A DNA stretch of 59,873 nucleotides from a virus, in UHGV virus genome UHGV-0015476, one strand, 5' to 3'. Position 1 is the first letter of the stretch. Every line of letters begins with the position of its first letter. Made by a program: the position numbers and the translations under genes. The notes under the pieces were generated by a model, which searched no databases, was not told the DNA's origin, and was given only the letters and a program-made list of their open reading frames with translations. Of the stretch, positions 5,082 to 59,726 are shown one piece after another.

Positions 5082-5399
5082 TTGCTGGGCAAGCTGCCTG
5101 GCGACGCGGAAGCGCCGAGATCGACCTGGCTGATGGACGACTACGAGCCCTGCGACGCTTGCAAGGAATTGCGCAAACAGGGAATCGACCTGATCGAGGC
5201 GACGGATCATCCGGTTGCTCATCCAAAGCAGCCGCAGTATCACGGCGCTTACCCGACAGGCAGACATATCATCTTATCGGAACATGGCATTCGAGCAATA
5301 TTCTCGCCCGAAGTGGCAGATGATTTGTGCAAACGAAGGGTCGGTTTTGTTGACAGCGAAACATTTTCGAAGCTGCAAGCAATTATTGGAAAGGATTGA
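5082..5399 (+). CDS. Zn-ribbon protein (C-x2-C ... C-x2-C). The annotated ATG probably truncates an N-terminal extension that holds the first CxxC.
   Basis: The open frame extends upstream to 4932 and encodes ...ICFWCGKEK... with no canonical start. A CDAC motif lies downstream. Confidence 0.45.
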   Translation: MLGKLPGDAEAPRSTWLMDDYEPCDACKELRKQGIDLIEATDHPVAHPKQPQYHGAYPTGRHIILSEHGIRAIFSPEVADDLCKRRVGFVDSETFSKLQAIIGKD

Positions 5400-6211
5400 T
5401 GCGCATGACTATCGGAGGTTGGATGAAAAAGAACGGTTCCACCATCCTGACCTGTCTTGGCGCTGGCGGTGTGATAGCGACCGTCATACTGGCGGTCCGG
5501 GCTACGCCCAGGGCGATGGGTAAGATTCAGACCGCGCGGATCGACAAAGGAAAAGAGATTCTTAACGGCGATTGCAAAGGAGAAGTCAAAAAGAATGGCG
5601 ACGGCAGCTATGAACTGCCCAAACTGACTGTGGCGGAAACCGTTGAGGTTTGCTGGACGGAGTATATACCTGCCGCGGCCATCGGCGTCGGTTCACTGGC
5701 ATGCATATTCGGCGCAAACATCCTCAGCAGAAGGCAGCAGGCATCTCTGGCCAGTGCGTACACGGCTCTCGCCGGTTCCTTTGAGGCCTATCGCGATAAG
5801 GTAGAGACGCTGTGCGGGCCGGGTACGAACGCCGCAGTTGAGAAAGCCGTCAAGCAGGAGAAGAAGGACGCCGAGGAGGATCGTCCGCCGTGGGACGAAG
5901 TGCAGACCTTCTACTTCGATGCGAACAGCCATCCTCAGTTCTTTGAGCGAACGATGGAGCAGGTCATGCGGGCGGAATACAACATCAACCGAAACCTGAT
6001 CCTGCGAGGCTACGTCTCCCTCAATGAATTTCTGGGATTCCTTGGGCTGGACTCTGTCGAGGGCGGAGAATTGATCGGCTGGGATCAGTATTATGGCGAG
6101 ACCGAGTATGGTTATCATTGGATCGATTTCAACCATCGCCATTACAGAACCGACGACGGATTGCTGGTCTGCTCGATTGAAACGCCCTTTGGACCGCATC
6201 CATATAACTGA
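5396..6211 (+). CDS. Paralog A of a triplicated two-TM membrane protein family. Likely start at 5399 or 5423.
   Basis: N-terminal TM helix, a second hydrophobic segment, and conserved A..AY.A...SF..YR..V and LNEF..LGL....G..LGW blocks shared with ORFs 6870 and 9765. Confidence 0.7.
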   Translation: MMRMTIGGWMKKNGSTILTCLGAGGVIATVILAVRATPRAMGKIQTARIDKGKEILNGDCKGEVKKNGDGSYELPKLTVAETVEVCWTEYIPAAAIGVGSLACIFGANILSRRQQASLASAYTALAGSFEAYRDKVETLCGPGTNAAVEKAVKQEKKDAEEDRPPWDEVQTFYFDANSHPQFFERTMEQVMRAEYNINRNLILRGYVSLNEFLGFLGLDSVEGGELIGWDQYYGETEYGYHWIDFNHRHYRTDDGLLVCSIETPFGPHPYN

Positions 6212-9764: not shown

Positions 9765-10691
9765 ATGAAATTCGACATCAAAAACACGGTCAATTCCTGT
9801 AAACTGGCCGTGCGCAAGCACAGTCCGGAGATCCTGGTATTCACCGGCATCGCGGGCGTCATCACCAGTGCGGTCATGGCCTGCATGGCGACAAGGAGAC
9901 TCGATCCTGTGCTGGAAGCCCATAAGGAGAACGCCGAAGCCGTTCACAAGAAGTACGAGCAAGAGCCGGATGAGCACGCCGAGAAGCAGGAGCTGACCAA
10001 GGTCTACGTGAAGACGGGTGTGGCATTTGCAAAGCTCTACGGGCCTTCGGTGACGCTGGGCGCTTTGTCCATCACCGGCATTCTGGCCAGCAACAACATC
10101 CTGCGCAAGCGCAATCTGGCGCTGGCCGCGGCTTACACGGCAATCGACACCAGCTTCAAGCAGTATCGCAGCCGCGTGGTGGATCGCTTCGGTGAGCAAG
10201 TGGACCGGGAGCTCCGGATCGGCGCCCATCAGGAAAAAATCGAGGTTGTCGAGACGGATGAGAACGGCAAGGAGAAAAAGGCCAAGAAAAATGTGACCGT
10301 GGTCGACAACCCGATGCCGTCCGATTACGCCCGGTATTTCTGCTGCGGTGAAGCGCGTGCGGCCGAACCCAATGCCGACTACAACGCCTTCTTCCTCAAG
10401 GCTCAGCAGGAGCTGGCGAATCACATGCTGATTGCGAACGGTTTCCTGTTCCTGAATGACGTATACGACATGCTGGGAATTGACCGCAGTATCGCCGGTC
10501 AGACCGTTGGCTGGGTATACGACAAGAACACGCGGGACCATGGTGATAACTACGTGGACTTCGGCATCCAGGAGGTTTACCGCAAGAAGAGCGACGAACC
10601 TGGCGACTACGAGAAGGTGTTCCTGCTGGACTTTAATGTGGACGGCAGCATTCTGAGTCATTCGCTGGAGAAGGGGCTTATTACGACCTAA
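9765..10691 (+). CDS. Paralog C of the two-TM membrane protein family, 308 aa.
   Basis: RBS AAGGAGGAAAAGAAATG. Shares SPEILVFTGIAGVITSAV and LNDVYDMLGI...VGW blocks. Confidence 0.7.
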   Translation: MKFDIKNTVNSCKLAVRKHSPEILVFTGIAGVITSAVMACMATRRLDPVLEAHKENAEAVHKKYEQEPDEHAEKQELTKVYVKTGVAFAKLYGPSVTLGALSITGILASNNILRKRNLALAAAYTAIDTSFKQYRSRVVDRFGEQVDRELRIGAHQEKIEVVETDENGKEKKAKKNVTVVDNPMPSDYARYFCCGEARAAEPNADYNAFFLKAQQELANHMLIANGFLFLNDVYDMLGIDRSIAGQTVGWVYDKNTRDHGDNYVDFGIQEVYRKKSDEPGDYEKVFLLDFNVDGSILSHSLEKGLITT

Positions 10692-21613: not shown

Positions 21614-23485
21614 ATGAACGAACTCTACTTTGGCCAGACGGTCAAGAAGATATTTGACGACATCAACTGCTCTGACGCCAGGGATTGCAACCTGAAGCGT
21701 GAGAACGGCAACATCAACGGCGATACCCCCATGGGGGCGATGCTCCAGCAGGGCGCAAACACCGCCAAGGAATATTATCTGGATACGATGATCGACCCGG
21801 AGATCGCAAACCTGCATCGCAAGGGCTGGATTCATATTCACGATCTGGACTTCTACGGCTGGACCACCACCTGCACGCAGATTGAGCTGCGAAAGCTCTT
21901 TAAGGGCGGCTTCAACACCGGGCACGGGCATCTGCGGGAGCCGAAGAGCATTGGCAGTTACGCGGCGCTGGCGGCCATCGCTATCCAGAGCAATCAGAAT
22001 GACCAGCACGGCGGACAGAGCGTTGTGGATTTCGATTATGCCATGGGCGACGGCGTGCGGCTGACCTACCAGCGATATTTGCGGGAGGCATTCGAGATCC
22101 AGTCTGATCTGCTGAACAACGCCGAAATGACCTATGAGACGGACATTGAGTGGCGGCAGGACTATGCCATGAAGAAGACCGTCCGCGACACCTATCAGGC
22201 GATGGAGGGGCTGATTCACAACCTGAACACCATGCACTCAAGGGCCGGGGCTCAGGTGCCGTTCTCTTCGCTGAACTACGGCATGGACACGTCCTGGGAA
22301 GGGCGGCTGGCCATGAAACAGCTTTTGCTGGCCACGGAGGCAGGCCTTGGCGATGGAGAAACGCCCATCTTCCCCATTCAGATTTTCCGGGTAAAGGAGG
22401 GGGTGAACTACAACCCGGGCGACCCCAATTATGACCTGTTCCGGCTGGCCATGCAGGTTTCCGCCAAGCGGCTGTTCCCGAACTTCAGCTTTGTGGATGC
22501 GCCCTTCAACCTGCAATACTATAAGCCCGGTCACCCGGAAACCGAGGTGGCCTACATGGGCTGCCGCACGCGGGTGATGGGCAATGTGTGCGGGCCGGAG
22601 ATCGCGCCCGGACGCGGCAACCTGAGCTTCACATCCATCAACCTTCCGAGGCTGGCGATTGAGTCCCAGGGAGACGCGAAGATGTTCTTCATTCATCTGG
22701 ATGAGATCCTGCACAGCGTTGCGAAGCAGCTGCTGGGGCGCTTTCAGGTGCAGGCTGCCCGGCTTGCACGCAATTTCCCTTTCCTGATGGGCGAAGGGGT
22801 GTGGCTGGATTCAGAGAAGCTGAAACCGGATGATCCGGTGCTGGAAGTCCTGCGCCACGGTACCCTCTCCATTGGCTTTATCGGCCTGGCAGAGACGCTC
22901 AAGGCGCTGACGGGTCACCATCACGGCGAGAGCGAGGAAGCGCAGAAGCTGGGGCTTGAGATTGTTGGGCACATTCGCGACTTCTGCGATGACATGAGCG
23001 AAGAGCTGGGGTTGAACTTCACCTGCCTGGCGACGCCCGCCGAGGGCTTGAGCGGCCGATTCGTGAGAATGGACAAGAAACGCTACGGCGAGATTCCGGG
23101 CGTGACAGATAAGGACTACTACACCAATAGCTTCCATGTACCGGTGTACTTTCCCATCTCCGCAGCCCGCAAGATCGAGCTGGAGTCGCCCTATCACGCG
23201 CTGACAAACGCCGGACATATTTCCTACGTGGAGATGGACGGTGATCCAACAAAGAATCTGGAGGCCTTTGAGGCGATTATCAGGCACATGAAGGAATGCG
23301 GCATCGGCTATGGCAGCATCAACCATCCGGTGGATCGCGACCCCGTATGCGGCTACAACGGCATCATCAATGATGTTTGCCCGAAGTGCGGCAGACGGCA
23401 TACCTGGAAGGAAACCGAAAAGATTGCCCGTCCCAAGGGTGATAAGCTGGAAAATGTGAAGGAGGATATTTCGAATGAAGATTGA
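21614..23485 (+). CDS. nrdD: Anaerobic ribonucleoside-triphosphate reductase NrdD, catalytic core (class III RNR). It ends after a Cys-rich stretch (VCGY...CPKCG, a possible Zn site) and lacks the glycyl-radical motif.
   Basis: RBS GAGGAAACGAAAAGATG. C-terminal DPVCGYNGIINDVCPKCG. The activase gene nrdG lies 0.7 kb downstream. Size and position match phage NrdD. Confidence 0.8.
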   Translation: MNELYFGQTVKKIFDDINCSDARDCNLKRENGNINGDTPMGAMLQQGANTAKEYYLDTMIDPEIANLHRKGWIHIHDLDFYGWTTTCTQIELRKLFKGGFNTGHGHLREPKSIGSYAALAAIAIQSNQNDQHGGQSVVDFDYAMGDGVRLTYQRYLREAFEIQSDLLNNAEMTYETDIEWRQDYAMKKTVRDTYQAMEGLIHNLNTMHSRAGAQVPFSSLNYGMDTSWEGRLAMKQLLLATEAGLGDGETPIFPIQIFRVKEGVNYNPGDPNYDLFRLAMQVSAKRLFPNFSFVDAPFNLQYYKPGHPETEVAYMGCRTRVMGNVCGPEIAPGRGNLSFTSINLPRLAIESQGDAKMFFIHLDEILHSVAKQLLGRFQVQAARLARNFPFLMGEGVWLDSEKLKPDDPVLEVLRHGTLSIGFIGLAETLKALTGHHHGESEEAQKLGLEIVGHIRDFCDDMSEELGLNFTCLATPAEGLSGRFVRMDKKRYGEIPGVTDKDYYTNSFHVPVYFPISAARKIELESPYHALTNAGHISYVEMDGDPTKNLEAFEAIIRHMKECGIGYGSINHPVDRDPVCGYNGIINDVCPKCGRRHTWKETEKIARPKGDKLENVKEDISNED

Positions 23486-27141: not shown

Positions 27142-27148
27142 AATCCGT

Positions 27149-27463
27149 GCCCACTTTTGTTTTCAAAAACGGGCATATGCCCACTTTTGTTTGAAAACTT
27201 GAGTGAAAAATTTTGAGAAAAGTGGGCTTGTGGCCAAAAAAAGTGGGCTTTTGCCCACTTTTGCGAGATAAAAGTGGGCAGAAAAATGGGCTCGAAACCG
27301 GCTGAAATTAGCCAAAAAGTGCTAAAATCGGCCCTTTTTCGGGGCTTTTGAAGCATTTTTCGGCAAAAACCGAAATTTCTGCCCATTTGCCCACTTTTAT
27401 TTTCTAATTCTATAAAAAGTTAAAAAATGAAATATTATATAGAATAGAGCAGAAAAAGTGGGC
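27149..27463 (+). repeat. Iteron-like array of GCCCACTTTT / AAAAGTGGGC repeats in an AT-rich non-coding region. Candidate replication origin, partition site or operator array.
   Basis: 8 exact 10-mers plus 2-3 degenerate copies. 4 direct: 27149, 27179, 27253, 27389. 4 inverted: 27218, 27239, 27270, 27454. Includes a 24-nt perfect palindrome at 27239-27262. Confidence 0.7.
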
Positions 27464-28884: not shown

Positions 28885-31710
28885 ATGAATTGGATTGCGC
28901 AGCAGATGCGGGATATTCTGGAAGGTCGGACTCGACTTTCCGAAAACGGCGAATTGATGCATTACGGAAAATCCAAGATGGATGGCGCTCCGGGCCGCGG
29001 TTCCGGCCGATATCCGTTAGGCAGCGGCGAAGACCCGAACCAGCATCGCGGCGATTTGATTTCCCGTGTGCAGGAGCTTCGGCGAAAGGGTATGAGTGAA
29101 AAAGACATTGCTGAGGCGATTGGGTATTCTTCCTCCACTCAGCTGAGAAGCGCCTATTCCAACGCCATCAATGAACGCCGCGCTACGCAGATTTCTTCTG
29201 CCCGCGCCATGCTGGCAGACGGAAAGACCCAGGCCCAGGTGGCCAGAGCGCTTAGTGTCAATGAGTCCACGCTCCGTTCCCTGCTCAATGAGCGTTCCGA
29301 GGCCCGCACCAACGCGGCCAAAGCAACGGCAGATTTTCTGAAGGCACAGATCGATTCAAAGGGTATGATCGATGTCGGTACCGGCGTGGAGCTGGAGCTT
29401 GGCGTGAGCCGGGAAAAGCTGAATCAGGCTTTGGCAATGCTGGAAGACGAAGGATATGTGGTCTATGGCGGCGGCGTGCCGCAGGCGACGAATCCGGGCA
29501 AACAAACCAACATCAAGGTCATTTGCCCGCCAGGAACCGAGCATAAAGAGATTTATGACTTCAAGAACGTGCATACGGTCACAGACTATAAGATGCGCGT
29601 GGACGAAGACGGCACCGAGCACTTTGAGAAGGGGTTTGAATACCCCGCTTCCATGGATTCCAGCCGACTGATGATTCGCTTCCGCGATGATGTCGCGCCT
29701 GATGGTCATACCGGTGTCGAGAAGGATGGCACCATTGAGATCCGGCGCGGTGTGGACGATCTGAGCCTTGGCGACAGCCGCTATGCGCAGGTTCGCATTC
29801 TGGTGGATGGAAACAAATACCTTAAAGGAATGGCATACTATTCGGACGACATGCCAGATGGCGTGGATGTGGTTTTCAATACCAACAAGACGCCCGATCA
29901 GGCGAATAAGGTGCTGAAAATCATCAAGAGCGATCCGAACAATCCTTTCGGCGCTTTGCTGCGGGAAGAGGGCGGCCAGTATCACTACACGGATCCCGAA
30001 ACCGGCGAGCGCAAGCTGGGTCTCATCAACAAGACCAGAACCGAGGGCGACTGGGGCGATTGGGCGGATGCGCTGCCGAGCCAGTTCCTCTCCAAGCAGA
30101 GTATGCAGCTCATTCAGAAACAGCTTGGTATGTCCATCGCGGATAAACAGGCCGAGTTTGATGAGATCACGGCGCTGACTAACCCAACGGTAAAGAAACA
30201 GCTGCTGGCGACTTTCGCCAATGACTGCGATTCGGCCGCCGTTCATTTGCAGGCCGCGGCTCTGCCCAGGCAGAAGTATCAGGTAATCCTTCCTATTGCT
30301 ACCATGAAGGATGACGAGGTCTATGCCCCCAATTATCATGATGGTGAAACGGTGGCGCTGATCCGGTATCCGCATGGCGGTACATTCGAAATCCCGATCC
30401 TGACGGTGAACAACAAGCAGCCGGACGGCATTCGGATTCTCGGCAGCACTCCTGCCGATGCCATTGGCATCAACAGCAAGGTTGCGGAGCGTCTGTCTGG
30501 GGCGGACTTCGATGGCGATACCGTCATGGTCATTCCATGCAACAGCCCGAGGAGCAACGTGAAGATCACCTCTACACCGCCGCTCAAGGGGCTGGAAGGC
30601 TTTGACCCTAAGATGGAATATGGCTCCAGCAGAACCGAGACCGACGCCAATGGAAAGACACACTACTTCCGGGATGGCCATGAGTTCAAGGTGATGAGCA
30701 ACACCCAGATGGAGATGGGCAAGATATCCAATCTGATTACCGACATGACGCTGAAAGGCGCCAGTCAGGACGAGTTGGCCCGTGCCGTCCGTCATTCCAT
30801 GGTTGTTATCGATGCCGAGAAGCACAAGCTGGACTGGAAGCAGAGCGAGCAGGACAATGGCATTGCGGGCCTGAGAAAGAAGTATCAGGAGCGCGCAGAT
30901 GAAGACGGTAACCTGCATTACGGCGCAAGCACCCTGATCTCCAGAGCCAAGTCTCCTGTATCGGTACTTAAGCGCAAAGGTTCCCCAAAGATCAATCCCG
31001 ACACCGGCGAGCTTGAGTACAAGACCGTAGAGGAGACCTATACGGATAAGAAAGGCAAGACTAAAGTTCGCACCCAGGATTCGACGCTGATGGCGGAAAC
31101 GAAGGACGCGCGTAGGCTTTCTTCCGGCACTCCCCAAGAAGAGGCTTATGCCGACTACGCGAACCGGATGAAGGCTATGGCCAACGCCGCACGCAAAGAA
31201 ATGCTTCGCGCCGGCAAGATAGAGTACAGCAGCAGCGCTAAGGAAACCTACCGTGAAGAAGTGGGCGACCTGGAACGCCAGCTGAAGAAAGCTTTGATGA
31301 ACGCACCTCGTGAACGTCAGGCTCAGCTTGCCGCCAACAGCGAAGTCAAGGCTATGAAGAAAGCCAATCCTGATATGACTAGCAAAGAGGTTAAGAAAAA
31401 AGGACAGCAGGCGCTTAGCAGAAACCGTATCAAATATGGCGCGCAGCGTTATGCAATCAGCATCTCACCCCGTCAATGGCAGGCAATTCAGTCTGGGGCA
31501 GTGAGTGAGAATCTGTTGACCAAGATCCTTCGCTTTGCCGATCAAGATCAGGTCAGAGCCTATGCGACTCCTCGCGCAACAACTTCCCTGTCTGCGGGAA
31601 AACAGGCAAGAATCCGGGCAATGCGTAGCTCAGGATACACCACCAGTCAGATTGCAGCTGCACTCGGCGTGGCTACTTCGACTGTCACCAAATACATGAA
31701 AGGAGAGTGA
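28885..31710 (+). CDS. YonO-like non-canonical single-chain RNA polymerase. It has two double-psi beta-barrels homologous to the beta and beta' subunits of multisubunit RNAPs. HTH modules flank the core; the C-terminal one is sigma-70 region 4-like.
   Basis: Beta-like barrel: VDGNKYLKGMAYYSDDMPDGVDVVFNTNKTP, compared with RHGNKGV..EDMP..VDIVLNP in bacterial beta. Beta'-like barrel: ALIRYPHGGTFEIP...GADFDGDTVMVIP, compared with NRAPTLHR...NADFDGDQMAVH. C-terminal LSAGKQARIRAMRSSGYTTSQIAAALGVATSTVTKYMK is sigma-r4-like. Confidence 0.8.
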   Translation: MNWIAQQMRDILEGRTRLSENGELMHYGKSKMDGAPGRGSGRYPLGSGEDPNQHRGDLISRVQELRRKGMSEKDIAEAIGYSSSTQLRSAYSNAINERRATQISSARAMLADGKTQAQVARALSVNESTLRSLLNERSEARTNAAKATADFLKAQIDSKGMIDVGTGVELELGVSREKLNQALAMLEDEGYVVYGGGVPQATNPGKQTNIKVICPPGTEHKEIYDFKNVHTVTDYKMRVDEDGTEHFEKGFEYPASMDSSRLMIRFRDDVAPDGHTGVEKDGTIEIRRGVDDLSLGDSRYAQVRILVDGNKYLKGMAYYSDDMPDGVDVVFNTNKTPDQANKVLKIIKSDPNNPFGALLREEGGQYHYTDPETGERKLGLINKTRTEGDWGDWADALPSQFLSKQSMQLIQKQLGMSIADKQAEFDEITALTNPTVKKQLLATFANDCDSAAVHLQAAALPRQKYQVILPIATMKDDEVYAPNYHDGETVALIRYPHGGTFEIPILTVNNKQPDGIRILGSTPADAIGINSKVAERLSGADFDGDTVMVIPCNSPRSNVKITSTPPLKGLEGFDPKMEYGSSRTETDANGKTHYFRDGHEFKVMSNTQMEMGKISNLITDMTLKGASQDELARAVRHSMVVIDAEKHKLDWKQSEQDNGIAGLRKKYQERADEDGNLHYGASTLISRAKSPVSVLKRKGSPKINPDTGELEYKTVEETYTDKKGKTKVRTQDSTLMAETKDARRLSSGTPQEEAYADYANRMKAMANAARKEMLRAGKIEYSSSAKETYREEVGDLERQLKKALMNAPRERQAQLAANSEVKAMKKANPDMTSKEVKKKGQQALSRNRIKYGAQRYAISISPRQWQAIQSGAVSENLLTKILRFADQDQVRAYATPRATTSLSAGKQARIRAMRSSGYTTSQIAAALGVATSTVTKYMKGE

Positions 31711-31715
31711 ACGGA

Positions 31716-31970
31716 ATGAACGTGAATGGAAACGTTGCGCTCACAACTTTCGACAATCCATACAATCCGTTCACTCAATTCCAGAAATGGTTCCTGTTTG
31801 ACACGGAAAAAGGATACAACTCATGTGCGTATCTGGCTCGAATCGCACGCACAAGTGATGAACTCACTGAAGAAGAAAATGATGAAGAAATCGAACGTGC
31901 GATTGACGAGATTATTAAGTATGACTTCATGAACAAATACAAGAAAATATACAAAAACGCCAAGAAATAA
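31716..31970 (+). CDS. Hypothetical acidic protein, 84 aa, lower GC.
   Basis: RBS AAAGGAGAG lies 7 nt before ATG 31716. Confidence 0.5.
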   Translation: MNVNGNVALTTFDNPYNPFTQFQKWFLFDTEKGYNSCAYLARIARTSDELTEEENDEEIERAIDEIIKYDFMNKYKKIYKNAKK

Positions 31971-31993
31971 GGCATATCATATCTTAAAACCAT

Positions 31994-32027
31994 AGGGAGG
32001 GGGTCGCCAAAAACACACCCCCTCCCT
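31994..32027 (+). promoter_or_regulatory. Perfect 11-bp GC-rich hairpin (AGGGAGGGGGT / ACCCCCTCCCT, 12-nt loop) without a downstream T-tract.
   Basis: Perfect inverted repeat; only a weak T run on the opposite strand. Confidence 0.6.
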
Positions 32028-32042
32028 GCATCGGCGGTCTCC

Positions 32043-32235
32043 TTCATTTTTCTCCGGGGGTAGATTTGGGAGAAACTTTTTGGGGTTCGTTCGGTTGCAG
32101 CCATGGCGTTTAGACGAGCTTGCGGGGCTGGGAAACTTCTTCATGATGATTCCTCCTTTGTTCTTTGGGTTTTCTTCATTTTTCTCCTTTCAACAGCGGT
32201 AAAAACAGCCTCGCAAGTTCTTCTAAACGCCATGG
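32043..32235 (+). promoter_or_regulatory. Structured non-coding leader of the late region. It holds a 13-bp direct repeat TTCATTTTTCTCC (32043, 32175) and a 14-bp inverted repeat CCATGGCGTTTAGA (32101, 32222).
   Basis: Exact repeats in the only sizeable non-coding gap of the late half, directly downstream of the RNAP gene cluster. Confidence 0.55.
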
Positions 32236-32264
32236 AAGTGGTATGAAAGGAGGACTTTGTTGCT

Positions 32265-32624
32265 ATGAAACGTGCAAAAGTGGCAGGGTCTTCCACGTCC
32301 TTGCCTAAAATGCGCCCTGCGCTGACGCCTGAGGCCCGCGAGGGTCAGTTGATTGCTCTAGCTACCGACCTTGTTGAGCAGAGGATGAGGGATGGGACTG
32401 CGACTTCTCAAGAGGTTGTCCATTTCCTCCGTCTTGGCTCCATGCGTGAGAGACTTGAGCGTGAGCGCTTAGAGAACGAGAATATTTTGCTGCGCGCTAA
32501 GACTGAGGCTCTTGAGTCTCAGGCGAAGGTAGAAGAGCTTTATGCCAAAGCTATCAAGGCTATGCAGCGATATAGCGGTAATTACAACGATGATGAAGAC
32601 GAGAACGACGAATCAGATTATTAG
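32265..32624 (+). CDS. Hypothetical protein, 119 aa, with an acidic C-terminal tail. Weak terminase-small-subunit-like character.
   Basis: RBS AAAGGAGGA upstream; first gene of the late region. Confidence 0.5.
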   Translation: MKRAKVAGSSTSLPKMRPALTPEAREGQLIALATDLVEQRMRDGTATSQEVVHFLRLGSMRERLERERLENENILLRAKTEALESQAKVEELYAKAIKAMQRYSGNYNDDEDENDESDY

Positions 32625-33030
32625 AACCTATTCGGAATTGATTCAGATCCCGACATTTACTGAACGGTTTGAGTATCTCCGACTTGATGGTCAGGTTGGA
32701 GTTGAGACCTTCGGGTTTGATCGGTATTTGAATCAGCGGTTTTATCACTCCACAGAGTGGCAATCAATTCGCGATGATATTATTACTCGTGATTTGGGTT
32801 GCGATCTCGCGATGGACGGATATGAGATTTACGGAAAGATCTACATTCACCATATGAATCCGATAACACAAATGGATATCGTTCATTCAAATGCTGATAT
32901 GCTCAATCCCGAATTTCTGATCTGCACCACTCACAATACTCACAACGCAATTCACTACGGCAATGCATCATTGTTGGTAACCGGACCGATCGAACGCAGA
33001 CCAAACGATACGTGTCCATGGAAAGCATAG
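32542..33030 (+). CDS. HNH endonuclease, possibly a homing or cos-associated nuclease. Start uncertain (32542 or 32593).
   Basis: His-Me finger: GCDLA ... IHHMNPI ... LICTTHNTHNAIHYG. Low GC (~42%). Overlaps the 3' end of the upstream gene. Confidence 0.7.
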   Translation: MPKLSRLCSDIAVITTMMKTRTTNQIIRTYSELIQIPTFTERFEYLRLDGQVGVETFGFDRYLNQRFYHSTEWQSIRDDIITRDLGCDLAMDGYEIYGKIYIHHMNPITQMDIVHSNADMLNPEFLICTTHNTHNAIHYGNASLLVTGPIERRPNDTCPWKA

Positions 33031-33594: not shown

Positions 33595-33596
33595 AC

Positions 33597-33947
33597 ATGA
33601 ATGACAGTATCCTCACTTCTATAAAAAAGGCGCTCGGTCCCGAAGAGATCTACGAGCATTTCGATCCTGAGATTATCATGTATATCAACTCTGTTCTGGC
33701 CACGCTGAGTGAACTTGGCGTTGGTCCAAAAGATGGGTTCATGATTGAGGATAAGACCGCTGTATGGAGTGATTTCATCAGTGACGATAAGCTAATGAGA
33801 CTTGTTCCGACCTACGTCTACCTCAAAGTCAAACTTGTCTTTGACCCGCCGACAATTGCGGCCGTCTTGGAGTCTTTTAAACGCCAGGCCGACGAGTATG
33901 AATGGCGTATCAATGCTGCCGCTGAAAGACTCAGCTCCAAAAGTTAA
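33597..33947 (+). CDS. gp6-like head-tail connector / DNA-packaging-like small protein, 116 aa.
   Basis: N-terminal pattern ILTSIKKALGPEEIYEHFDPEIIMYINSVLATLSELG resembles the Phage_connect_1 N-terminus. Its placement upstream of terL is atypical. Confidence 0.35.
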   Translation: MNDSILTSIKKALGPEEIYEHFDPEIIMYINSVLATLSELGVGPKDGFMIEDKTAVWSDFISDDKLMRLVPTYVYLKVKLVFDPPTIAAVLESFKRQADEYEWRINAAAERLSSKS

Positions 33948-33969
33948 TTCTTCTGTAACAGAAATTTAA

Positions 33970-33997
33970 TTGCATAGGGAGGGGTATATGGTATAAT
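33970..33997 (+). promoter_or_regulatory. Sigma-A-type promoter: -35 TTGCAT, 16-nt spacer, extended -10 TGgTATAAT.
   Basis: TTGCATagggaggggtatatgGTATAAT lies 45 nt upstream of the low-GC moron gene. Confidence 0.6.
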
Positions 33998-34042
33998 ATT
34001 TATAGTGAGCTTGTCGCTATAAGCGAATTAGGAGATGAGCAC

Positions 34043-34756: not shown

Positions 34757-35455
34757 ATGTCGGCCAACGAACTAACGCATCATGGCATTCTTGGACAGAG
34801 ATGGGGTGTTCGGCGCACGCCTGAGCAGCTCGGTCATAAAACTGGCAGTAAAAATGCTTCTTCTGGCACGTCGAAGAAGGAGACTGCCGAAAAGAAAACC
34901 GGCAGCGCTCACAAGAAAACTTCGCATATGACCGATGAAGAACTCCGGCAACGCATTCAGAGGTTAAATATGGAAGAGCAGTATGCCAATCTCGCTGCAA
35001 GAGCAAAGGAACGTAATACTTCTACTTTGCGAAAACTTGTCGGAAATGCTTTGGAAAGCTTTGGCAAACAGAGCTTCGATTTTGCTGTTAAATGGGCTGT
35101 CGATAAGGTCTTCAGCAAAAAAGATCCAGATGAAGCATTGCGAAAAGAGGTCGAACATCTCAGGCTTGAAGACAGTCGTGAAGAATTGCTCGGCAAAAAA
35201 GGAAATCGCGGCGATCAGTTAAGGCGAGAAGTTGATCGGTTGAGCTTGGAAGACCGACGAGCCGAATTGCTTGGCAAAAAACATGAACGTGAGAATCCAA
35301 AGCCGGAGTTTGACATCAGCAAGTGGCGTTACGCCGACGTGCGAACCATGGATGCTGAAACGGCTCAGAATGTTGCTCGTTATTACGCAAACGCCAAGTT
35401 AATTGTCACTGGGCAGGATGCTTTGAAGCCTAAACCGGACGGTGGCGATACTTAA
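34757..35455 (+). CDS. Hypothetical protein immediately upstream of terL (possible small terminase subunit). It carries the shared HHGIxGQRWGVRRxPEQLGH N-terminal motif.
   Basis: The stop is coupled to the terL start (TAATG). Coiled-coil region with internal repeats LEDSREELLGKK and LEDRRAELLGKK. Confidence 0.5.
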   Translation: MSANELTHHGILGQRWGVRRTPEQLGHKTGSKNASSGTSKKETAEKKTGSAHKKTSHMTDEELRQRIQRLNMEEQYANLAARAKERNTSTLRKLVGNALESFGKQSFDFAVKWAVDKVFSKKDPDEALRKEVEHLRLEDSREELLGKKGNRGDQLRREVDRLSLEDRRAELLGKKHERENPKPEFDISKWRYADVRTMDAETAQNVARYYANAKLIVTGQDALKPKPDGGDT

Positions 35456-37194
35456 TGCTATCTAACACCGCTGTTCCAAAATATTACGGAGAGTTTCGAG
35501 ATGCTGTTATCCGAGGAGAAATTCCAATCAACGCCGAGATTGAAATGGAGATGCATCGAATCGATGATCTCATTGATGATCCTGAGGTTTGGTATGACGA
35601 CGACGCCATTAAAGGCTTCATCGAGTATTGCGAAGAGGAATTGACATTAACTGATGGTTCTGATGTAAAACTGCTCGATAGTTTCAAACTATGGGCGGAA
35701 CAGATCTTTGGTTGGTATGTCTATGAAACTCGCGTTGTACCCAAACCCAGAAGGAACGGTACGATTCGTTACATCCGTAAACGCATCAAAAAGCGACTGA
35801 CCAACAAGCAGTTTCTGATTGTGGCCAGAGGCGCAGCCAAGACGATGTACGCCAGCTTCATCCAGAGTTTCTTTCTGAATATCGACAACAGCACCACTCA
35901 TCAGATTGCGACGGCTTTTACCATGAGACAGGCTGAGGAAACTCTATCGCCAATTCGTACTGCTATCACTCGCGCCCGTGGCCCCTTATTCAAGTTCCTT
36001 ACTGAGGGCAGTTTACAGAATACTACCGGGTCTCGCGCGAATCGAGTAAAGCTTGCAAGTACCAAAAAGGGAATTCAGAATTTCCTCACGGATAGCTATA
36101 TCGAGACTGTCCCTATGAGTATCGACAAGCTGCAATCAATGCGAACCAAGATCGCAACCATCGATGAATGGCTTTCCTGCGATGTTCGAGAAAATGTCGT
36201 CAACGCCATCGAACAAGGCTCCTCCAAAATAGATGATTACCTGATTGTCGCTATCAGTTCCGAAGGAACCGTGCGAAACGCTATCGGTGACACCATGAAG
36301 ATGGAACTGATGAAGATTCTCAAAGGAGAATTGGAACAGCCTTGGGTGAGTATCTGGTACTATCGTTTGGATTCCATCGACGAGGTAAAGAACCCCGCAA
36401 TGTGGCTCAAGGCCAATCCAAACTTGGGAAAGACCGTCACTTATGAGACTTACTCCCGTGACGTAGCCAAGATTGAGAAGTCGCCGGCAGACAAGAATGA
36501 GATTCTCGCCAAGCGTTTCGGTATTCCGATGGAAGGTCTGTCCTATTTCTTCACTTATGAAGAGATTCAGAAGCATGCCAAGCGTAATTACTGGCAGATG
36601 CCTTGCGCTCTTGGCGCTGACCTTTCTCAGGGTGACGACTTTTGTGCGTTTACATTCATTTTCCCGTTACGTGATGGCTGCTTTGGTGTGAAGACCAGAA
36701 ATTACATTTCTCAACTGACTTTTGACAGGCTCCCAGCTGCCATGCACATCAAGTATGAGGAGTTCATTGAAGAAGGCAGTCTCGTCATAATGGATGGCAC
36801 CGTACTCGATATGATGGCTGTTTATGAGGATCTCGACCAGCATATCTCCGAAATGGAATATGATGTGCGCTGTCTCGGGTACGATCCTTATAATGCTAAG
36901 GAATTCATTGCGCGATGGGAAGCTGAAAACAGTCCCTTTGGTATCGAGAAGGTTATTCAGGGGGCAAAAACAGAATCCGTTCCTTTGGGCGAGCTAAAGA
37001 AGCTATCCGAGGAGAGGATGCTTTTGTTTGACGAGAGCCTTATGACTTTTGCTATGGGCAACTGTATCGCGGTTGAGGATACCAACGGCAATCGTAAGCT
37101 TGTTAAAAAGCGTTATGAGCAGAAGATCGATGCTGTTGCGGCTATGATGGATGCCTACATCGCATACAAAATCAATAGGGAGGCGTTTGATTGA
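35455..37194 (+). CDS. terL: Terminase large subunit.
   Basis: 579 aa with a deviant Walker A (LIVARGAAKT) and nuclease-domain acidic residues. Its position upstream of the portal gene is typical. Confidence 0.8.
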   Translation: MLSNTAVPKYYGEFRDAVIRGEIPINAEIEMEMHRIDDLIDDPEVWYDDDAIKGFIEYCEEELTLTDGSDVKLLDSFKLWAEQIFGWYVYETRVVPKPRRNGTIRYIRKRIKKRLTNKQFLIVARGAAKTMYASFIQSFFLNIDNSTTHQIATAFTMRQAEETLSPIRTAITRARGPLFKFLTEGSLQNTTGSRANRVKLASTKKGIQNFLTDSYIETVPMSIDKLQSMRTKIATIDEWLSCDVRENVVNAIEQGSSKIDDYLIVAISSEGTVRNAIGDTMKMELMKILKGELEQPWVSIWYYRLDSIDEVKNPAMWLKANPNLGKTVTYETYSRDVAKIEKSPADKNEILAKRFGIPMEGLSYFFTYEEIQKHAKRNYWQMPCALGADLSQGDDFCAFTFIFPLRDGCFGVKTRNYISQLTFDRLPAAMHIKYEEFIEEGSLVIMDGTVLDMMAVYEDLDQHISEMEYDVRCLGYDPYNAKEFIARWEAENSPFGIEKVIQGAKTESVPLGELKKLSEERMLLFDESLMTFAMGNCIAVEDTNGNRKLVKKRYEQKIDAVAAMMDAYIAYKINREAFD

Positions 37195-37890: not shown

Positions 37891-37980
37891 CACAGTTCTT
37901 TGATGACTCCGAACCGTCAAAATGGTTTGGGGTCTTTTTTTATGCCATTTTTCAAACTGACTATGCAGGAGGAGACCGAT

Positions 37981-39246
37981 ATGCCATTTATGAACAGGCT
38001 TAAACATGCCTGGAACATCTTTAAGAACAAGGACCCCACTGCCTACACTCAGATCGGTGTTTCATATGCCGGTGGTTATCGTCCTGATCGGCCCCGTTTC
38101 AGCAGAGGAAACGAGCGTTCTATTACGACTTCTGTTTACAATCGCATTGCTATGGATGCTGCGGCTATGAATGTTCGTCATGTCCGGCTGGATAAGAATG
38201 GGCGCTATCTGGAGGATATGAAATCTGGTCTGAACAATTGCCTGTCTCTGGAAGCCAATATCGACCAGACTGGCCGAGGGTTCATCCAGGATGTTGTAAT
38301 GAGCATGCTGGATGAAGGATGCGTTGCTATTGTGCCGGTTGATACAGACATCGATCCTGAAGAGAGCGAAAGCGTCAAGATTCTGACTATGCGGACCGGA
38401 AAAATCGTCGACTGGTACCCGAAGTATGTTCGTGTACAGTTATATAACGAAGAAGTCGGTCGCCGCGAGGAAGTGATCCTGCCGAAATCCATCGTTGCGA
38501 TTGTTGAGAATCCATTGTATGCGGTTATCAATGAACCGAACTCCACCATGCAGCGACTGGTCCGAAAACTTAGTTTGCTGGATGTTGTGGATGAGAAAAC
38601 CAGCAGCGGAAAATTGGATCTCATCATCCAGCTTCCCTACGTCATCAAGACGGAGGCCCGTAGACAGCAGGCGGAATTGCGGCGTAAAGACATTGAGACT
38701 CAGCTTGCCGAGGGCAAGTATGGTATTGCCTATACGGATGGTACAGAACGGATCACACAGTTAAACCGACCGGTCGAGAACAATCTGATGAAGCAGATTG
38801 AGTATCTCACCGGTATGCTATATAGCCAGCTCGGTATTACTCAGGCAATTCTCGATGGATCGGCCGATGAAAAGACGATGCTGAATTACTATAACCGGAC
38901 AATCGAGCCGATTCTTGCGGCTATTACCGATGAGATGAAGCGGAAATTCCTCAGTAAGACAGCTCGTTCTCAGAATCAGACCGTCACTTTCTTCCGTGAT
39001 CCGTTCAAGTTAGTCCCCGTCAATGACATCGCGGAGATCGCTGATAAGTTTACTCGCAACGAAATTATGACCTCCAATGAGATCAGACAGATTATCGGCA
39101 TAAAGCCTAGCGATGATCCCAATGCTGATGTGCTGAGAAACAAGAATCTGAGCGCTTCTGATGGGGATAAGAAATCTCTGTTGTCGGCCGGTTCAGGACC
39201 GGGCGATTCCAACAAAGAAGAAAAGGAGACAGGTCAAAATGGATAA
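37981..39246 (+). CDS. Portal protein (SPP1 gp6-like family).
   Basis: RBS AGGAGG lies 10 nt before ATG 37981. Size and position (after terL, before capsid) fit a portal. My recollection of SPP1-type portal sequence features supports this but is not a checked alignment. Confidence 0.75.
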   Translation: MPFMNRLKHAWNIFKNKDPTAYTQIGVSYAGGYRPDRPRFSRGNERSITTSVYNRIAMDAAAMNVRHVRLDKNGRYLEDMKSGLNNCLSLEANIDQTGRGFIQDVVMSMLDEGCVAIVPVDTDIDPEESESVKILTMRTGKIVDWYPKYVRVQLYNEEVGRREEVILPKSIVAIVENPLYAVINEPNSTMQRLVRKLSLLDVVDEKTSSGKLDLIIQLPYVIKTEARRQQAELRRKDIETQLAEGKYGIAYTDGTERITQLNRPVENNLMKQIEYLTGMLYSQLGITQAILDGSADEKTMLNYYNRTIEPILAAITDEMKRKFLSKTARSQNQTVTFFRDPFKLVPVNDIAEIADKFTRNEIMTSNEIRQIIGIKPSDDPNADVLRNKNLSASDGDKKSLLSAGSGPGDSNKEEKETGQNG

Positions 39247-58474: not shown

Positions 58475-58664
58475 TATGAAGTGACCTCTTGGGAAAGCGC
58501 TCGTCCACGCGGCGGGCGCTCTCTCTTTTGGTTTTCGCCTTCGTGAAAAGGAGATTGACATGAACCCTTTGATCGCCTATACTTTGAACAGGATCGGGGA
58601 CAAAATCCGGTCGACGAACCTTGAAAACAAAAGATTGTGCTCTTCCTCAGAAGAGGAGGAGACC

Positions 58665-59726
58665 ATGTCCATTAACAAGAAAAAGATTCGGCGGGAAGTT
58701 GTGCTGAACGGTGTAAAGGTCTGGGTCACGGCAGACACTGAGCAGGAGTATGTGGAGAAGGTTCTGCGGCTATCTGGCGCGACTGGTGGTTCTACCATGA
58801 AGCACAGCTTTCGGGAATATGCGGAAAACTGGTTTGAAGTGTTCTCCAAGCCGAATGTGGCAAACGTGACGGCGCTAACCTACAAGCGGCAGCTGGATCA
58901 CTATATTCTGCCGGTCTTAGGTGATAAAAACCTGGAGGACGTGACGCCCGCGGACGTACAGTCGGTTTTCAATCAGATGGATGATGATGCGAAGCAGGAG
59001 ACAAAAAACAAGGTCAAGATCGTTCTCAACCAAATCTTCAAAATGGCTTTGGATGACGGTTTCATCCTGCGAAATCCGCTGCAATCCTCCGCTGTGAAGA
59101 TCAAAGGGAAGGCAGCCAATGTCACAGAGCCATATACCGTCGATCAGATGCGGTTTCTGGCAGCTCATTTAGGTGAGGTAAAACGAGAAATGGATCGTGC
59201 CTGGCTGGCTCTGTCTATTTCCCTTCCATTGAGGCCTGAAGAAGTACTTGGGTTGAAGTGGGAGGATGTTGATGTAGAGAACTGTGTGATTCATGTGCGG
59301 AACACGGTAACGCATCCGACCAGGAATGAGCCTGAGTTTAAGCCCTACACCAAGACCGCATCAAGCGTTCGGGAACTGGCATTCCCAAAAGAGATTCTGG
59401 CATACCTTCCGAAGCCCGGAAAGCCGGAGGATTTTGTGGTCGGCGGGGAGAAGGCAGTGAGCTACACGCTGCTCCGAGGCATCCGCAAGCGGATCAACTG
59501 GGATACGCACTTCGGGGAGACCATCACGCCAAGGCGGTTCAGGACGACAGTTGCGACGGATATTTCTGCAATGACCCATGATCTGAAGCTGGTACAGCAG
59601 ATGCTGGGTCACAGCACGCCACAGATGACACTCAAGCATTACGATAAGGGTCGAAGTGGAGCGATCGATGCCTCAAAAGCCATTGGTCAGTGCTATGGAT
59701 TCGGCGGCCAACTGACGGATTTCTGA
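58665..59726 (+). CDS. int: Tyrosine site-specific integrase.
   Basis: RBS AGAGGAGGAG lies 6 nt before ATG 58665. Catalytic residues are R (LRPEEVLGLKWEDV), a HxxR box and the H...Y box (LGHSTPQMTLKHYDKG). Confidence 0.85.
   Translation: MSINKKKIRREVVLNGVKVWVTADTEQEYVEKVLRLSGATGGSTMKHSFREYAENWFEVFSKPNVANVTALTYKRQLDHYILPVLGDKNLEDVTPADVQSVFNQMDDDAKQETKNKVKIVLNQIFKMALDDGFILRNPLQSSAVKIKGKAANVTEPYTVDQMRFLAAHLGEVKREMDRAWLALSISLPLRPEEVLGLKWEDVDVENCVIHVRNTVTHPTRNEPEFKPYTKTASSVRELAFPKEILAYLPKPGKPEDFVVGGEKAVSYTLLRGIRKRINWDTHFGETITPRRFRTTVATDISAMTHDLKLVQQMLGHSTPQMTLKHYDKGRSGAIDASKAIGQCYGFGGQLTDF

Follow-up and report, generated by a model that had tools for sequence, protein, structure and literature searches.

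A probable cohesive-end site and a conserved stem in the non-coding gap ahead of the late genes of phage genome UHGV-0015476

Introduction

Defined genome ends have been described for the phages of cluster BI, including ClubPenguin and RosaAsantewaa, whose linear genomes carry a 9-bp 3' overhang of CGCCCGCCT or CGCCGCCCT (PMC9671017, PMC6256688). In HK97, the HNH protein gp74 has a packaging role that has been summarised (PMC13595911). The late genes of phage SPbeta are transcribed by the polymerase YonO as one operon that starts 3' of yonO-yonN and 5' of an unannotated non-coding RNA and yonK, and the promoter and regulatory signals of YonO are still unknown (PMC5467207). All these systems bear on a 294-nt gap (31971-32264) in the viral genome UHGV-0015476, which is bounded by an open reading frame (ORF) of 87 aa on the 5' side and one of 119 aa on the 3' side. 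The whole stretch of 59,873 nt that was analysed is hereafter called the window.

A preliminary description, made from the sequence alone, regarded the gap as a highly structured non-coding leader with three exact repeats and proposed it as a late promoter or a cos/pac site. The analysis reported here indicates that the gap very probably consists of two adjacent, separable modules: a cohesive-end (cos) site at about 31994-32067 and a long stem at the head of the late operon at 32101-32235. The first module is assigned as cos with high confidence and is an ordinary cos of the kind already known from isolates, and the second is a genuinely conserved, structured element. The earlier proposal thus held for cos in the first third of the gap, on the strength of end-mapped homologues and exact contig termini, but neither a sigma-70-like site nor a recurring motif was found for the promoter. 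For the second half of the gap, a leader or promoter-associated role is plausible in view of the stem's constant place at the head of the rightward operon.

The probable cos site in the first third of the gap

A megablast search against annotated phages returned no match for the window DNA, and blastn gave one weak match, located where the SscP1EGY record begins, that provided an initial lead. The relatives with mapped ends are the Streptomyces phages Bing and ClubPenguin, the Arthrobacter phage Mudcat and the Lactococcus phage P118, in which the homologue of the ORF upstream of the gap comes last and that of the downstream ORF comes first. The right arms of Bing, Mudcat and ClubPenguin show exact synteny (exonuclease, RNA-dependent RNA polymerase (RdRP)-like gene, small ORF, right end), and their left ends are followed by the phrog_4259 homologue, an HNH gene and later the gene of the large terminase subunit (TerL). 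The record ends of these three phages align base for base with window positions 31994-32080, the final 9 nt of the ClubPenguin record being CGCCCGCCT, and the record of P118, a Firmicute isolate, ends at the homologous position. A literature search on the overhangs of Mudcat and cluster AM and on the cos of the P087 group found nothing usable.

At least 17 independent IMG/VR contigs picked via the upstream ORF end in ...CAT at the base homologous to 32031, among them one (L045) with about 90% DNA identity to the window. Six contigs picked via the downstream ORF start exactly 10 nt before the TCYCCGGSGG anchor, on the base that corresponds to 32041, and in a seventh (L027) this base is joined directly to an Illumina adapter. 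One 63-kb contig bears both termini (L017 and L076). All of the distinct sequences that read through the junction (45/45) have exactly 9 nt between the two terminus positions, and these 9 nt are absent from both ends of the terminated contigs. Since end repair trims 3' overhangs, their loss at both ends places cosN at 32032-32040, and the nicks would fall at 32040/32041 on the top strand and at 32031/32032 on the bottom strand. Homologues of the window's phage accordingly have ends at fixed positions and a complementary extension of fixed length (9 nt), whose polarity we infer for the window's phage. The adapter of L027 (positions 1-32 of IMGVR_UViG_3300045988_134416; 32 nt, CACTCTTTCCCTACACGACGCTCTTCCGATCT) is a contaminant that marks a true physical left end.

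Across the junction the window reads ...AGGGAGGGGGTCGCCAAAAACACACCCCCTCCCTGCAT CGGCGGTCT CCTTCATTTTTCTCCGGGGG... (coordinates in Table 1). The right ends of the relatives are built of a G-tract, an A-rich spacer, a C-tract, TGCAT and CGCCCGCCT, and their left ends of CCTnWWWWWW and TCCCCGGSGGG. The right-end flank of the window, whose TGCAT stops at the putative bottom-strand nick 32031/32032, aligns with the right ends of Bing, Mudcat, ClubPenguin and P118, and the left-end flank with the left ends of Bing, Mudcat, ClubPenguin, Tanis and P118. Columns C12, C14, C15, G16, G17, G19 and G20 of the left-end flank are invariant in alignment A1, and the CC-GG-GG positions are near-invariant from Arthrobacter to Firmicute phages. 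The left-end core consensus over 142 distinct cores is CTTnAAAAATTCTCCGGGGGnnnTTTT, in which the positions used for selection are inflated. A scan of IMG/VR with the cos-core pattern CATCG-N6-TC-N9-TCYCCGGSGG matched at least 120 contigs. Among the matches listed, to which all counts of loci given here and below refer, the small ORF lies 5' of the core in 106/110 and the phrog_4259 homologue 3' of it in 86/96 of the loci whose flanks could be tested, and the G/C-tract element is present in 113 of the 117 loci selected by the core. No cos motif was found elsewhere in the window, and neither flank element recurs there.

The three exact repeats noted earlier all lie where they had been placed, and the view that they exceed chance is borne out by 2000 dinucleotide shuffles of the gap, in which exact direct repeats of 13 nt or more turned up 3 times, inverted repeats reaching 14 nt once and inverted repeats reaching 11 nt 18 times. 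The GC-rich hairpin described as lacking a T-tract (hairpin 1) is indeed a perfect 11-bp hairpin with arms at 31994-32004 and 32017-32027, a 12-nt loop and no U-tract after it, and the window has a single match to its pattern, where 0.00 would be expected. One arm is invariably a run of G and the other a run of C, with an A-rich spacer between them; the hairpin ends 4-8 nt before the nick and is conserved in sequence without covariation. The 13-bp direct repeat TTCATTTTTCTCC is likewise present at 32043-32055 and 32175-32187 (132 nt from start to start), and its exact match runs to 14 nt (CTTCATTTTTCTCC), with 20 nt at 90% (32036-32055 and 32168-32187); copy 1 (32043-32055) lies in the left-end cos flank and copy 2 in the loop of the second module. 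As a conserved functional repeat it was rejected, the median common substring in relatives being 7 nt, which is the chance level. Because the two regions share only such a chance-level substring in relatives, the exact direct repeat is peculiar to the lineage of the window, where it derives from two separately conserved T-rich motifs containing CTCC. The 14-bp inverted repeat (CCATGGCGTTTAGA and TCTAAACGCCATGG) exists, but it is merely the outer part of a longer stem with 30-nt arms (32101-32130 and 32206-32235), 90% complementarity and a 75-nt loop. The suggestion that the repeats are protein-binding sites therefore survives for hairpin 1 and copy 1 of the direct repeat, which are conserved flanks of the cleavage site, but not for the direct repeat itself, which is not kept, or for the inverted repeat, which is a covarying stem.

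Both cos flanks, the G-, A- and C-tract element and the W-tract with TCTCCGGGGG, are nearly invariant between actinobacterial and Firmicute phages, and they may act as protein-recognition or bending elements of the packaging machinery, with roles comparable to those of cosQ and cosB in lambda. In the mechanism proposed here, the HK97-type TerL (35455-37194), aided by the HNH protein (32614-33030), would nick both strands and produce 9-nt 3' ends of CGGCGGTCT. Three points weigh against this assignment. The cos of the window's phage is read from homology, and the 3' polarity assigned to its overhang comes from relatives and from the way in which contig ends are trimmed. Moreover, a small terminase subunit (TerS) was not identified, so the recognition step has no assigned protein.

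Comparison of the cos site with described systems

The cos sites of cluster BI (Bing, ClubPenguin, RosaAsantewaa), the Mudcat group and P118 (Nevevirus) are homologous to that of the window in a base-for-base alignment. They share the G-, A- and C-tracts, TGCAT, a GC-rich 9-mer of the form CG......T, CCTn(W)5-6 and TCYCCGGSGG, as well as an RdRP-like polymerase and a small ORF on one side and the phrog_4259 homologue and HNH on the other. The 9-mer itself differs, being CGGCGGTCT in the window and CGCCCGCCT, CGCCGCCCT or CGCCGGCCT in the relatives, and Bing and ClubPenguin, unlike the window, have no long leader stem. The actinophage relatives are presumably lytic, unlike the phage of the window, which is probably temperate.

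The locus resembles the packaging system of HK97 in a TerL related to structure 6z6d, an HNH gene by cos, 3' ends (deduced here from relatives) and unit-length packaging. An HK97-like TerL with an HNH protein encoded beside cos is the arrangement that defines the HK97 type. In contrast to HK97, the cos sequence of the window shows no similarity to that of HK97, its HNH gene is the second gene of the left arm instead of being placed at the right end, and a TerS was not recognised in the window. Lambda cos (cosQ-cosN-cosB) is similarly tripartite, with the cleavage site between a right-end element and elements 5' of the first packaging gene and with A/T tracts that may bend DNA. Lambda differs in its 12-nt 5' overhang and in the lack of homology, and the roles of the flanks in the window are assigned by position only.

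A covarying stem ahead of the first late gene

The gap is as highly structured as first described: its RNA fold scores z = -6.9 for the + and -5.0 for the - strand, and 0/200 shuffles fold as well. In an alignment of 12 sequences, the helix formed by 32101-32127 and 32209-32235 has 95.1% of cells paired, and 18 of its 26 pairs show change on both sides. None of 500 shuffles scored as high (0/500), and slid controls reached 43-49%. The stem thus displays the compensatory substitutions that characterise a conserved structured RNA. Folds of minimum free energy and an unbiased inverted-repeat search recovered stems with wholly lineage-specific arms in about 30 independent arm families, with arms of 18-36 nt and loops of 44-125 nt, including P118 and Mudcat (36-nt arms in the latter). 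A stem score of at least 15 was obtained in 75 of 106 loci selected by cos. The 30-bp stem contains one conserved internal C.U mismatch.

The strand that folds can be read from the exceptions to perfect pairing. With G.T and A.C wobbles scored equally, 66 G.T, 20 A.C and 10 transversions were counted against 787 Watson-Crick pairs, and the + strand fold beats the - strand fold by 17-46 kcal/mol in most lineages. The excess of G.T over A.C, together with the better + strand folds, points to the + strand as the folding strand.

The stem ends 10 nt 5' of the Shine-Dalgarno (SD) sequence and 29 nt 5' of the ATG of the first gene, and its position relative to cos varies among relatives. It is 500-2000 nt away from cos in Mudcat, L139, L162 and L207, where 38-109 nt separate it from the phrog_4259 homologue downstream. 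In L204, L138, L174, L182 and L129 it stays about 45 nt from cos and extra genes lie downstream, and in the group of L046 it is likewise about 45 nt from cos, with a + strand tRNA-Leu downstream. Bing, ClubPenguin and about 20% of the listed loci with the same cos core have no stem. Where separated from cos or from gene 1, the stem is always found at the head of the rightward operon, and so it belongs to the operon head and not to cosN. The + strand tRNA-Leu in the leader of four relatives indicates that the + strand of the leader is transcribed. It is a tRNA-Leu(CAG) between the stem and gene 1 (L046 2181-2267, L048 2178-2265, L054 2181-2268 and L057 2180-2266).

The loop is conserved in sequence. 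It contains TTTnCTTCAnTTT, invariant in alignment A1, followed by CTCCTTTC(A/G)A, and CTCCTT(T/A) occurs in the loop of most of 35 arm families. The motif UCUCCUUUC is complementary to the SD of gene 1, GAAAGGAGG. Rfam 15 gave no match at the gathering score in the whole window, and for 31800-32400, searched with E up to 10, its matches were at chance level. Rfam searches of 10 relatives returned tRNA only, and ARAGORN found no tRNA in the window.

Possible functions of the stem

The stem would form on the + strand, most probably within the leader transcript of the late genes read rightward, an operon that comprises packaging, lysis and structural genes. Of the possible mechanisms, all speculative, the likeliest is an element of RNA processing or stability, for instance an RNase III-type site or a 5' stabiliser, and the stem may also tune translation initiation through its anti-SD motif. 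The + strand bias favours a leader RNA element, as do the tRNA found in the leader and the location immediately 5' of the SD.

Hairpins cut by RNase III and 5' stabilisers are known from the R sites of T7, the N leader of lambda, the Bacillus phage SP82 and the aprE and ermC leaders. The stem of the window resembles them in spanning at least two helical turns, in its single conserved internal mismatch and in its leader position just 5' of the SD. Unlike them, it has an unusually large loop that is conserved in sequence, and it shows no sequence similarity and no Rfam match. With 30 bp, it has the structural prerequisite for RNase III (a stem of at least about 20 bp), which makes it a candidate site only.

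A broader proposal can be made tentatively: the stem and its CU-rich loop, which resembles the 3' end of 16S rRNA, would constitute an undescribed class of cis-acting leader RNA that marks the head of the late operon in phages with single-chain YonO/RdRP-like RNA polymerases. Such a class is possible rather than likely, and late expression could require it via processing, stabilisation, ribosome access or an effect on the phage polymerase itself. The cos core with which the stem is associated extends over at least 120 viral contigs and isolates of Arthrobacter and Lactococcus phages.

Several observations weigh against a leader RNA formed on the + strand. A promoter upstream of the stem was not found, and about 60 nt separates cos from the 5' arm. 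A search for sigma-70-type promoters (-35 and -10 hexamers, 16-18 nt spacing) gave 0 sites on either strand of 31600-32700, where 1.0 was expected by chance. In Mudcat, an extended -10-like box, TGCTATAAT, stands directly 3' of the stem (L004 697-715); since this box follows the 3' arm, its transcript would exclude the stem. Not every lineage has the + strand wobble bias: in some, L092 and Mudcat among them, it is lacking or even reversed, and strand-biased mutation could contribute to it. Finally, the loop motif can equally be read as a minus-strand SD and ATG, where the annotated gp2 of Mudcat starts.

The late leader of SPbeta offers a comparison. Its polymerase gene, small gene, non-coding region and late operon with terminase and portal follow the same plan as the window. 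Just 5' of yonK, SPbeta has a stem with 16-nt arms and an 87-nt loop carrying TTCATCTCCTTT, and an SD and ATG follow about 30 nt on. A block of about 135 nt (L241 14186-14304; SPBc2 59185-59303, minus strand) is near-invariant in SPbeta-like phages and its flanks diverge. The published P_YonO primer maps about 1.4 kb 5' of this block, which therefore lies inside the late leader. A match to the Rfam DUF3800-VIII RNA was observed about 100 nt further 5' of the block (L241 14410-14475, minus strand). SPbeta differs from the window in that its polymerase is only remotely related, its stem is short and its fold does not beat shuffles (z = -0.88). SPbeta has an inverted repeat of that size about every 6 kb, and its relatives are too close for covariation. 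By analogy, SPbeta may carry a counterpart of the stem within its YonO-dependent leader; equally, the resemblance may be coincidental, any anti-SD-like motif looking similar.

Alternative readings of the gap

A rather unlikely alternative, though one compatible with cos in the first third, is that the phage's own YonO/RdRP-like polymerase has its late promoter or recognition element in the gap, either in the stem (for example as a structure extruded from supercoiled DNA) or in the segment between cos and stem. The stem's constant position at the head of the rightward operon, even apart from cos or gene 1, suits a promoter, as do the failure to find a host-type promoter and the polymerase gene directly 5' in 61 of 63 listed loci. 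The hairpin promoters of phage N4 are a precedent for selection of folding on one strand. An N4-type hairpin promoter, however, has a stem of 5-7 bp and a loop of 3 nt on the template strand, a form from which a stem of about 30 bp with a 75-nt loop departs, and for the rightward genes the strand whose folding is favoured here is the non-template one. The P_YonO primer of SPbeta lies about 1.4 kb 5' of the comparable block, so that the block is inside the transcript and is not the promoter. No conserved motif recurring elsewhere in the window was found either: copies of TTCATTTTTCTCC, TCTCCTTTCAA, TCYCCGGSGG and GGRGAAACTTYT in the window do not exceed chance, and the minus-strand motif hits are the ordinary ribosome-binding sites (RBSs) and ATGs of + strand genes.

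About as unlikely is a reading of hairpin 1, and perhaps also of the TTTCTCC/GGAGAAA hairpin with CTTTTT (32048-32081), as terminators that insulate the right arm from the left, a role that could exist alongside terminase recognition or in place of it. Hairpin 1 stands 23 nt past the last stop codon of the right arm in the window and is found in 113/117 listed loci, with a mild + strand wobble bias (20 G.T vs 6 A.C), and at the left end of many lineages a CYCCGGSGG palindrome is accompanied by an A-tract and a T-tract, a combination that resembles a bidirectional terminator. Yet hairpin 1 is followed by TGCATCGG and not by a U-tract, a terminator scan was empty on either strand, and the loops of 12 nt in hairpin 1 and 13 nt in the hairpin at 32048-32075 do not conform to an intrinsic terminator, in which a GC-rich stem has a short loop and runs straight into a U-tract. 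Both elements are conserved by sequence and not by covariation, which suits a protein site better. Termination at this point would also be at odds with a + strand RNA containing the long stem, except if 32041-32100 held a promoter.

The gap was called non-coding at the outset, and this view stands, as small ORFs on both strands are kept neither in frame nor in sequence. A + strand ORF of 47 aa was rejected as coding since its frame shifts between relatives, and the minus-strand ORFs were rejected as short and mutually unrelated. Among the latter is an ORF of 55 aa (32144-31977) with a strong SD and ATG that runs through the GC element and the site of cos cleavage. Translationally coupled via ATGA to a mini-ORF of 12 codons, it has only 11 aa in the L007 group and hence is not conserved. 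It is improbable that the loop motif is the RBS and start of a real small gene on the minus strand, with the stem regulating that gene or a divergent promoter pair. The minus strand does read GAAAGGAGAAAAATGAAGAAAACC, a canonical SD, spacer and ATG in the style of the window's ordinary starts, the 12-codon ORF overlaps a second start via ATGA, and Mudcat gp2 (65 aa, minus strand) is annotated from the same CTCCTTTCAAGAG motif in the loop. But the encoded peptides, anywhere between 2 and 65 aa long, show no relationship across lineages, a start codon at usable distance is missing in L081, L092, L093 and L063, and both substitutions among close relatives are non-synonymous. In addition, the second ORF of the window would cross cos and run antisense into a conserved gene, the comparable SPbeta block has GGAG abutting ATG with no spacer, and the wobble bias favours the + strand fold.

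Still less probable is a role of the long inverted repeat in packaging at the DNA level, as a cosB-like docking site for terminase or as a cruciform. The repeat begins about 45 nt from the left end in most lineages (median 46 among the matches listed), repeats are common in phage cos regions, and lambda has cosB in the equivalent position (PMC13595911). Nevertheless, the arms are wholly different between lineages despite homologous packaging proteins, pairing over about 30 bp is held by compensatory change, and the bias of G.T over A.C points to folding of a single strand. The stem is also 500-2000 nt from cos in four relatives and missing in Bing, ClubPenguin and about 20% of the listed loci. 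The idea that the gap is a headful pac site, an attP, a replication origin or a chance cluster of repeats draws on its non-coding, repeat-rich nature and on the integrase encoded in the window (58560-59726), and it has almost no probability left: contig termini at single nucleotides, the fixed 9-nt gap and the defined cohesive ends of isolates exclude headful packaging, the integrase is 26 kb distant, an iteron-rich gap at 27142-27457 is a better candidate for the origin, and chance is excluded by the shuffle tests and by conservation.

Flanking genes and other features of the window

The features at and around the gap are collected in Table 1. The polymerase gene is the last large gene of the right genome arm, and its product carries the DxDGD motif as GADFDGDTV at residue 541. 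A homologue lies 5' of the cos core in 61/63 listed loci with enough flank. Both terminal helix-turn-helix (HTH) domains of this polymerase match PHROGs annotated as small terminase subunit (phrog_7067, 2.8e-8; phrog_309; phrog_2538), and the polymerase gene adjoins cos in those 61/63 loci. Homologues of the small ORF gave tblastn matches at the extreme right end of records including Mudcat, Circum and GirlPower. They correspond to Bing gp87 and Mudcat gp95 and are the last gene of the linear genome in the end-mapped relatives.

Table 1. Features at and around the non-coding gap, with positions in the window
Feature	Position	Strand	Basis
Polymerase homologue, YonO/RdRP-like two-barrel, 941 aa, HTH at both termini	28885..31710	+	phrog_4291, E = 0, residues 19-940
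Small ORF, 87 aa	31707..31970	+	phrog_4303, 8e-37
Right-end cos flank: G-tract 31994-32004, A-rich spacer, C-tract 32017-32027, TGCAT	31994..32031	.	11-bp inverted repeat; right ends of relatives
cosN, putative 9-nt 3' cohesive end 5'-CGGCGGTCT-3'	32032..32040	+	contig termini, read-throughs, cluster BI overhang
Left-end cos flank: CCTTCATTTTT, then near-invariant TCTCCGGGGG (32051-32060), T-rich run	32041..32067	.	alignment A1, left ends of relatives
Stem, 5' arm	32101..32130	+	inverted repeat, fold, covariation
Stem loop with CU-rich motifs CTTCTTCATG, TCCTCC, GGGTTTTCTTCATTTTTCTCCTTTCAA (32167-32193, including direct-repeat copy 2)	32131..32205	+	
Stem, 3' arm	32206..32235	+	covariation
SD GAAAGGAGG (32245-32253) and ATG (32265) of the first left-arm gene	32245..32267	+	read from sequence
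First left-arm gene, 119 aa	32265..32624	+	phrog_4259, 1e-43
HNH endonuclease	32614..33030	+	phrog_4321, 5e-65
TerL, large terminase subunit	35455..37194	+	Pfam TerL_nuclease 7.7e-37 and TerL_ATPase; phrog_9, 2e-103

On the left arm, the phrog_4259 homologue is gene 1 in Bing, ClubPenguin and RosaAsantewaa. An AlphaFold2 model of the window's protein (pLDDT, the predicted local distance difference test, 79.5) predicts a helical hairpin or coiled coil, for which Foldseek returned no significant match, and the protein is not demonstrably a small terminase. The HNH gene is gene 2 in Bing and ClubPenguin, and in the window it begins 573 nt from cosN. It had been said to follow within 300 bp of the gap, which is not the case, as it starts at 32614, 350 nt beyond the gap end; the link to packaging drawn from it is nevertheless reasonable in view of the HK97-type layout of HNH and TerL. 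The HNH protein matches solved HNH proteins weakly (5h0m, E = 0.044) and is a probable accessory factor for cos cleavage. The sole solved relative of TerL is 6z6d (E = 1.9e-9), which we take to be the TerL of HK97. Searches of the ORFs between cos and TerL against Pfam, PHROGs, NCBIfam and the PDB matched no TerS.

Regarding the phage itself, the window has a G+C content of 51% and encodes a tyrosine integrase at its far end (58560-59726; phrog_1, 9e-51), an anaerobic NrdD (21614-23485) and a primase-polymerase. The integrase and the anaerobic NrdD suggest a temperate phage infecting an anaerobe; the host is probably an anaerobic Firmicute, and the window may also represent a prophage. The phage is a siphovirus from a widespread family whose genomes have a YonO/RdRP-like polymerase gene at the right end. 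A cos in mid-window is as expected of a prophage or a permuted map; the window ends do not overlap, that is, no circular assembly was found. It is doubtful that the gap is the only large non-coding one in the late half, as the preliminary description had it, because a crude ORF map has further gaps of 300-480 nt at 33595-34042, 37891-38204 and 38628-39106.

A second non-coding gap (27142-27457, 316 nt), between genes of the replication module, contains AAAAGTGGGC and GCCCACTTTT iterons in both orientations and about 10 overlapping inverted-repeat pairs, and it is a candidate origin of replication or operator array. In the early region, two paralogues (5396-6211 and 9765-10691) belong to the same uncharacterised family, phrog_2152 (2e-58 and 8e-74).

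Significance

Placing cosN to the nucleotide fixes the start and end of the genome map and predicts both the ends of the virion DNA and the packaging class. The cos core can be used to orient metagenomic contigs of a large, mostly uncultured family (at least 120 IMG/VR contigs) and to check their completeness, and its conserved flanks are substrates for studying how cos is recognised by an HK97-type terminase and HNH protein without an evident TerS. The covarying stem, for its part, provides a concrete and mutable handle on the control of late genes in phages with YonO-like polymerases.

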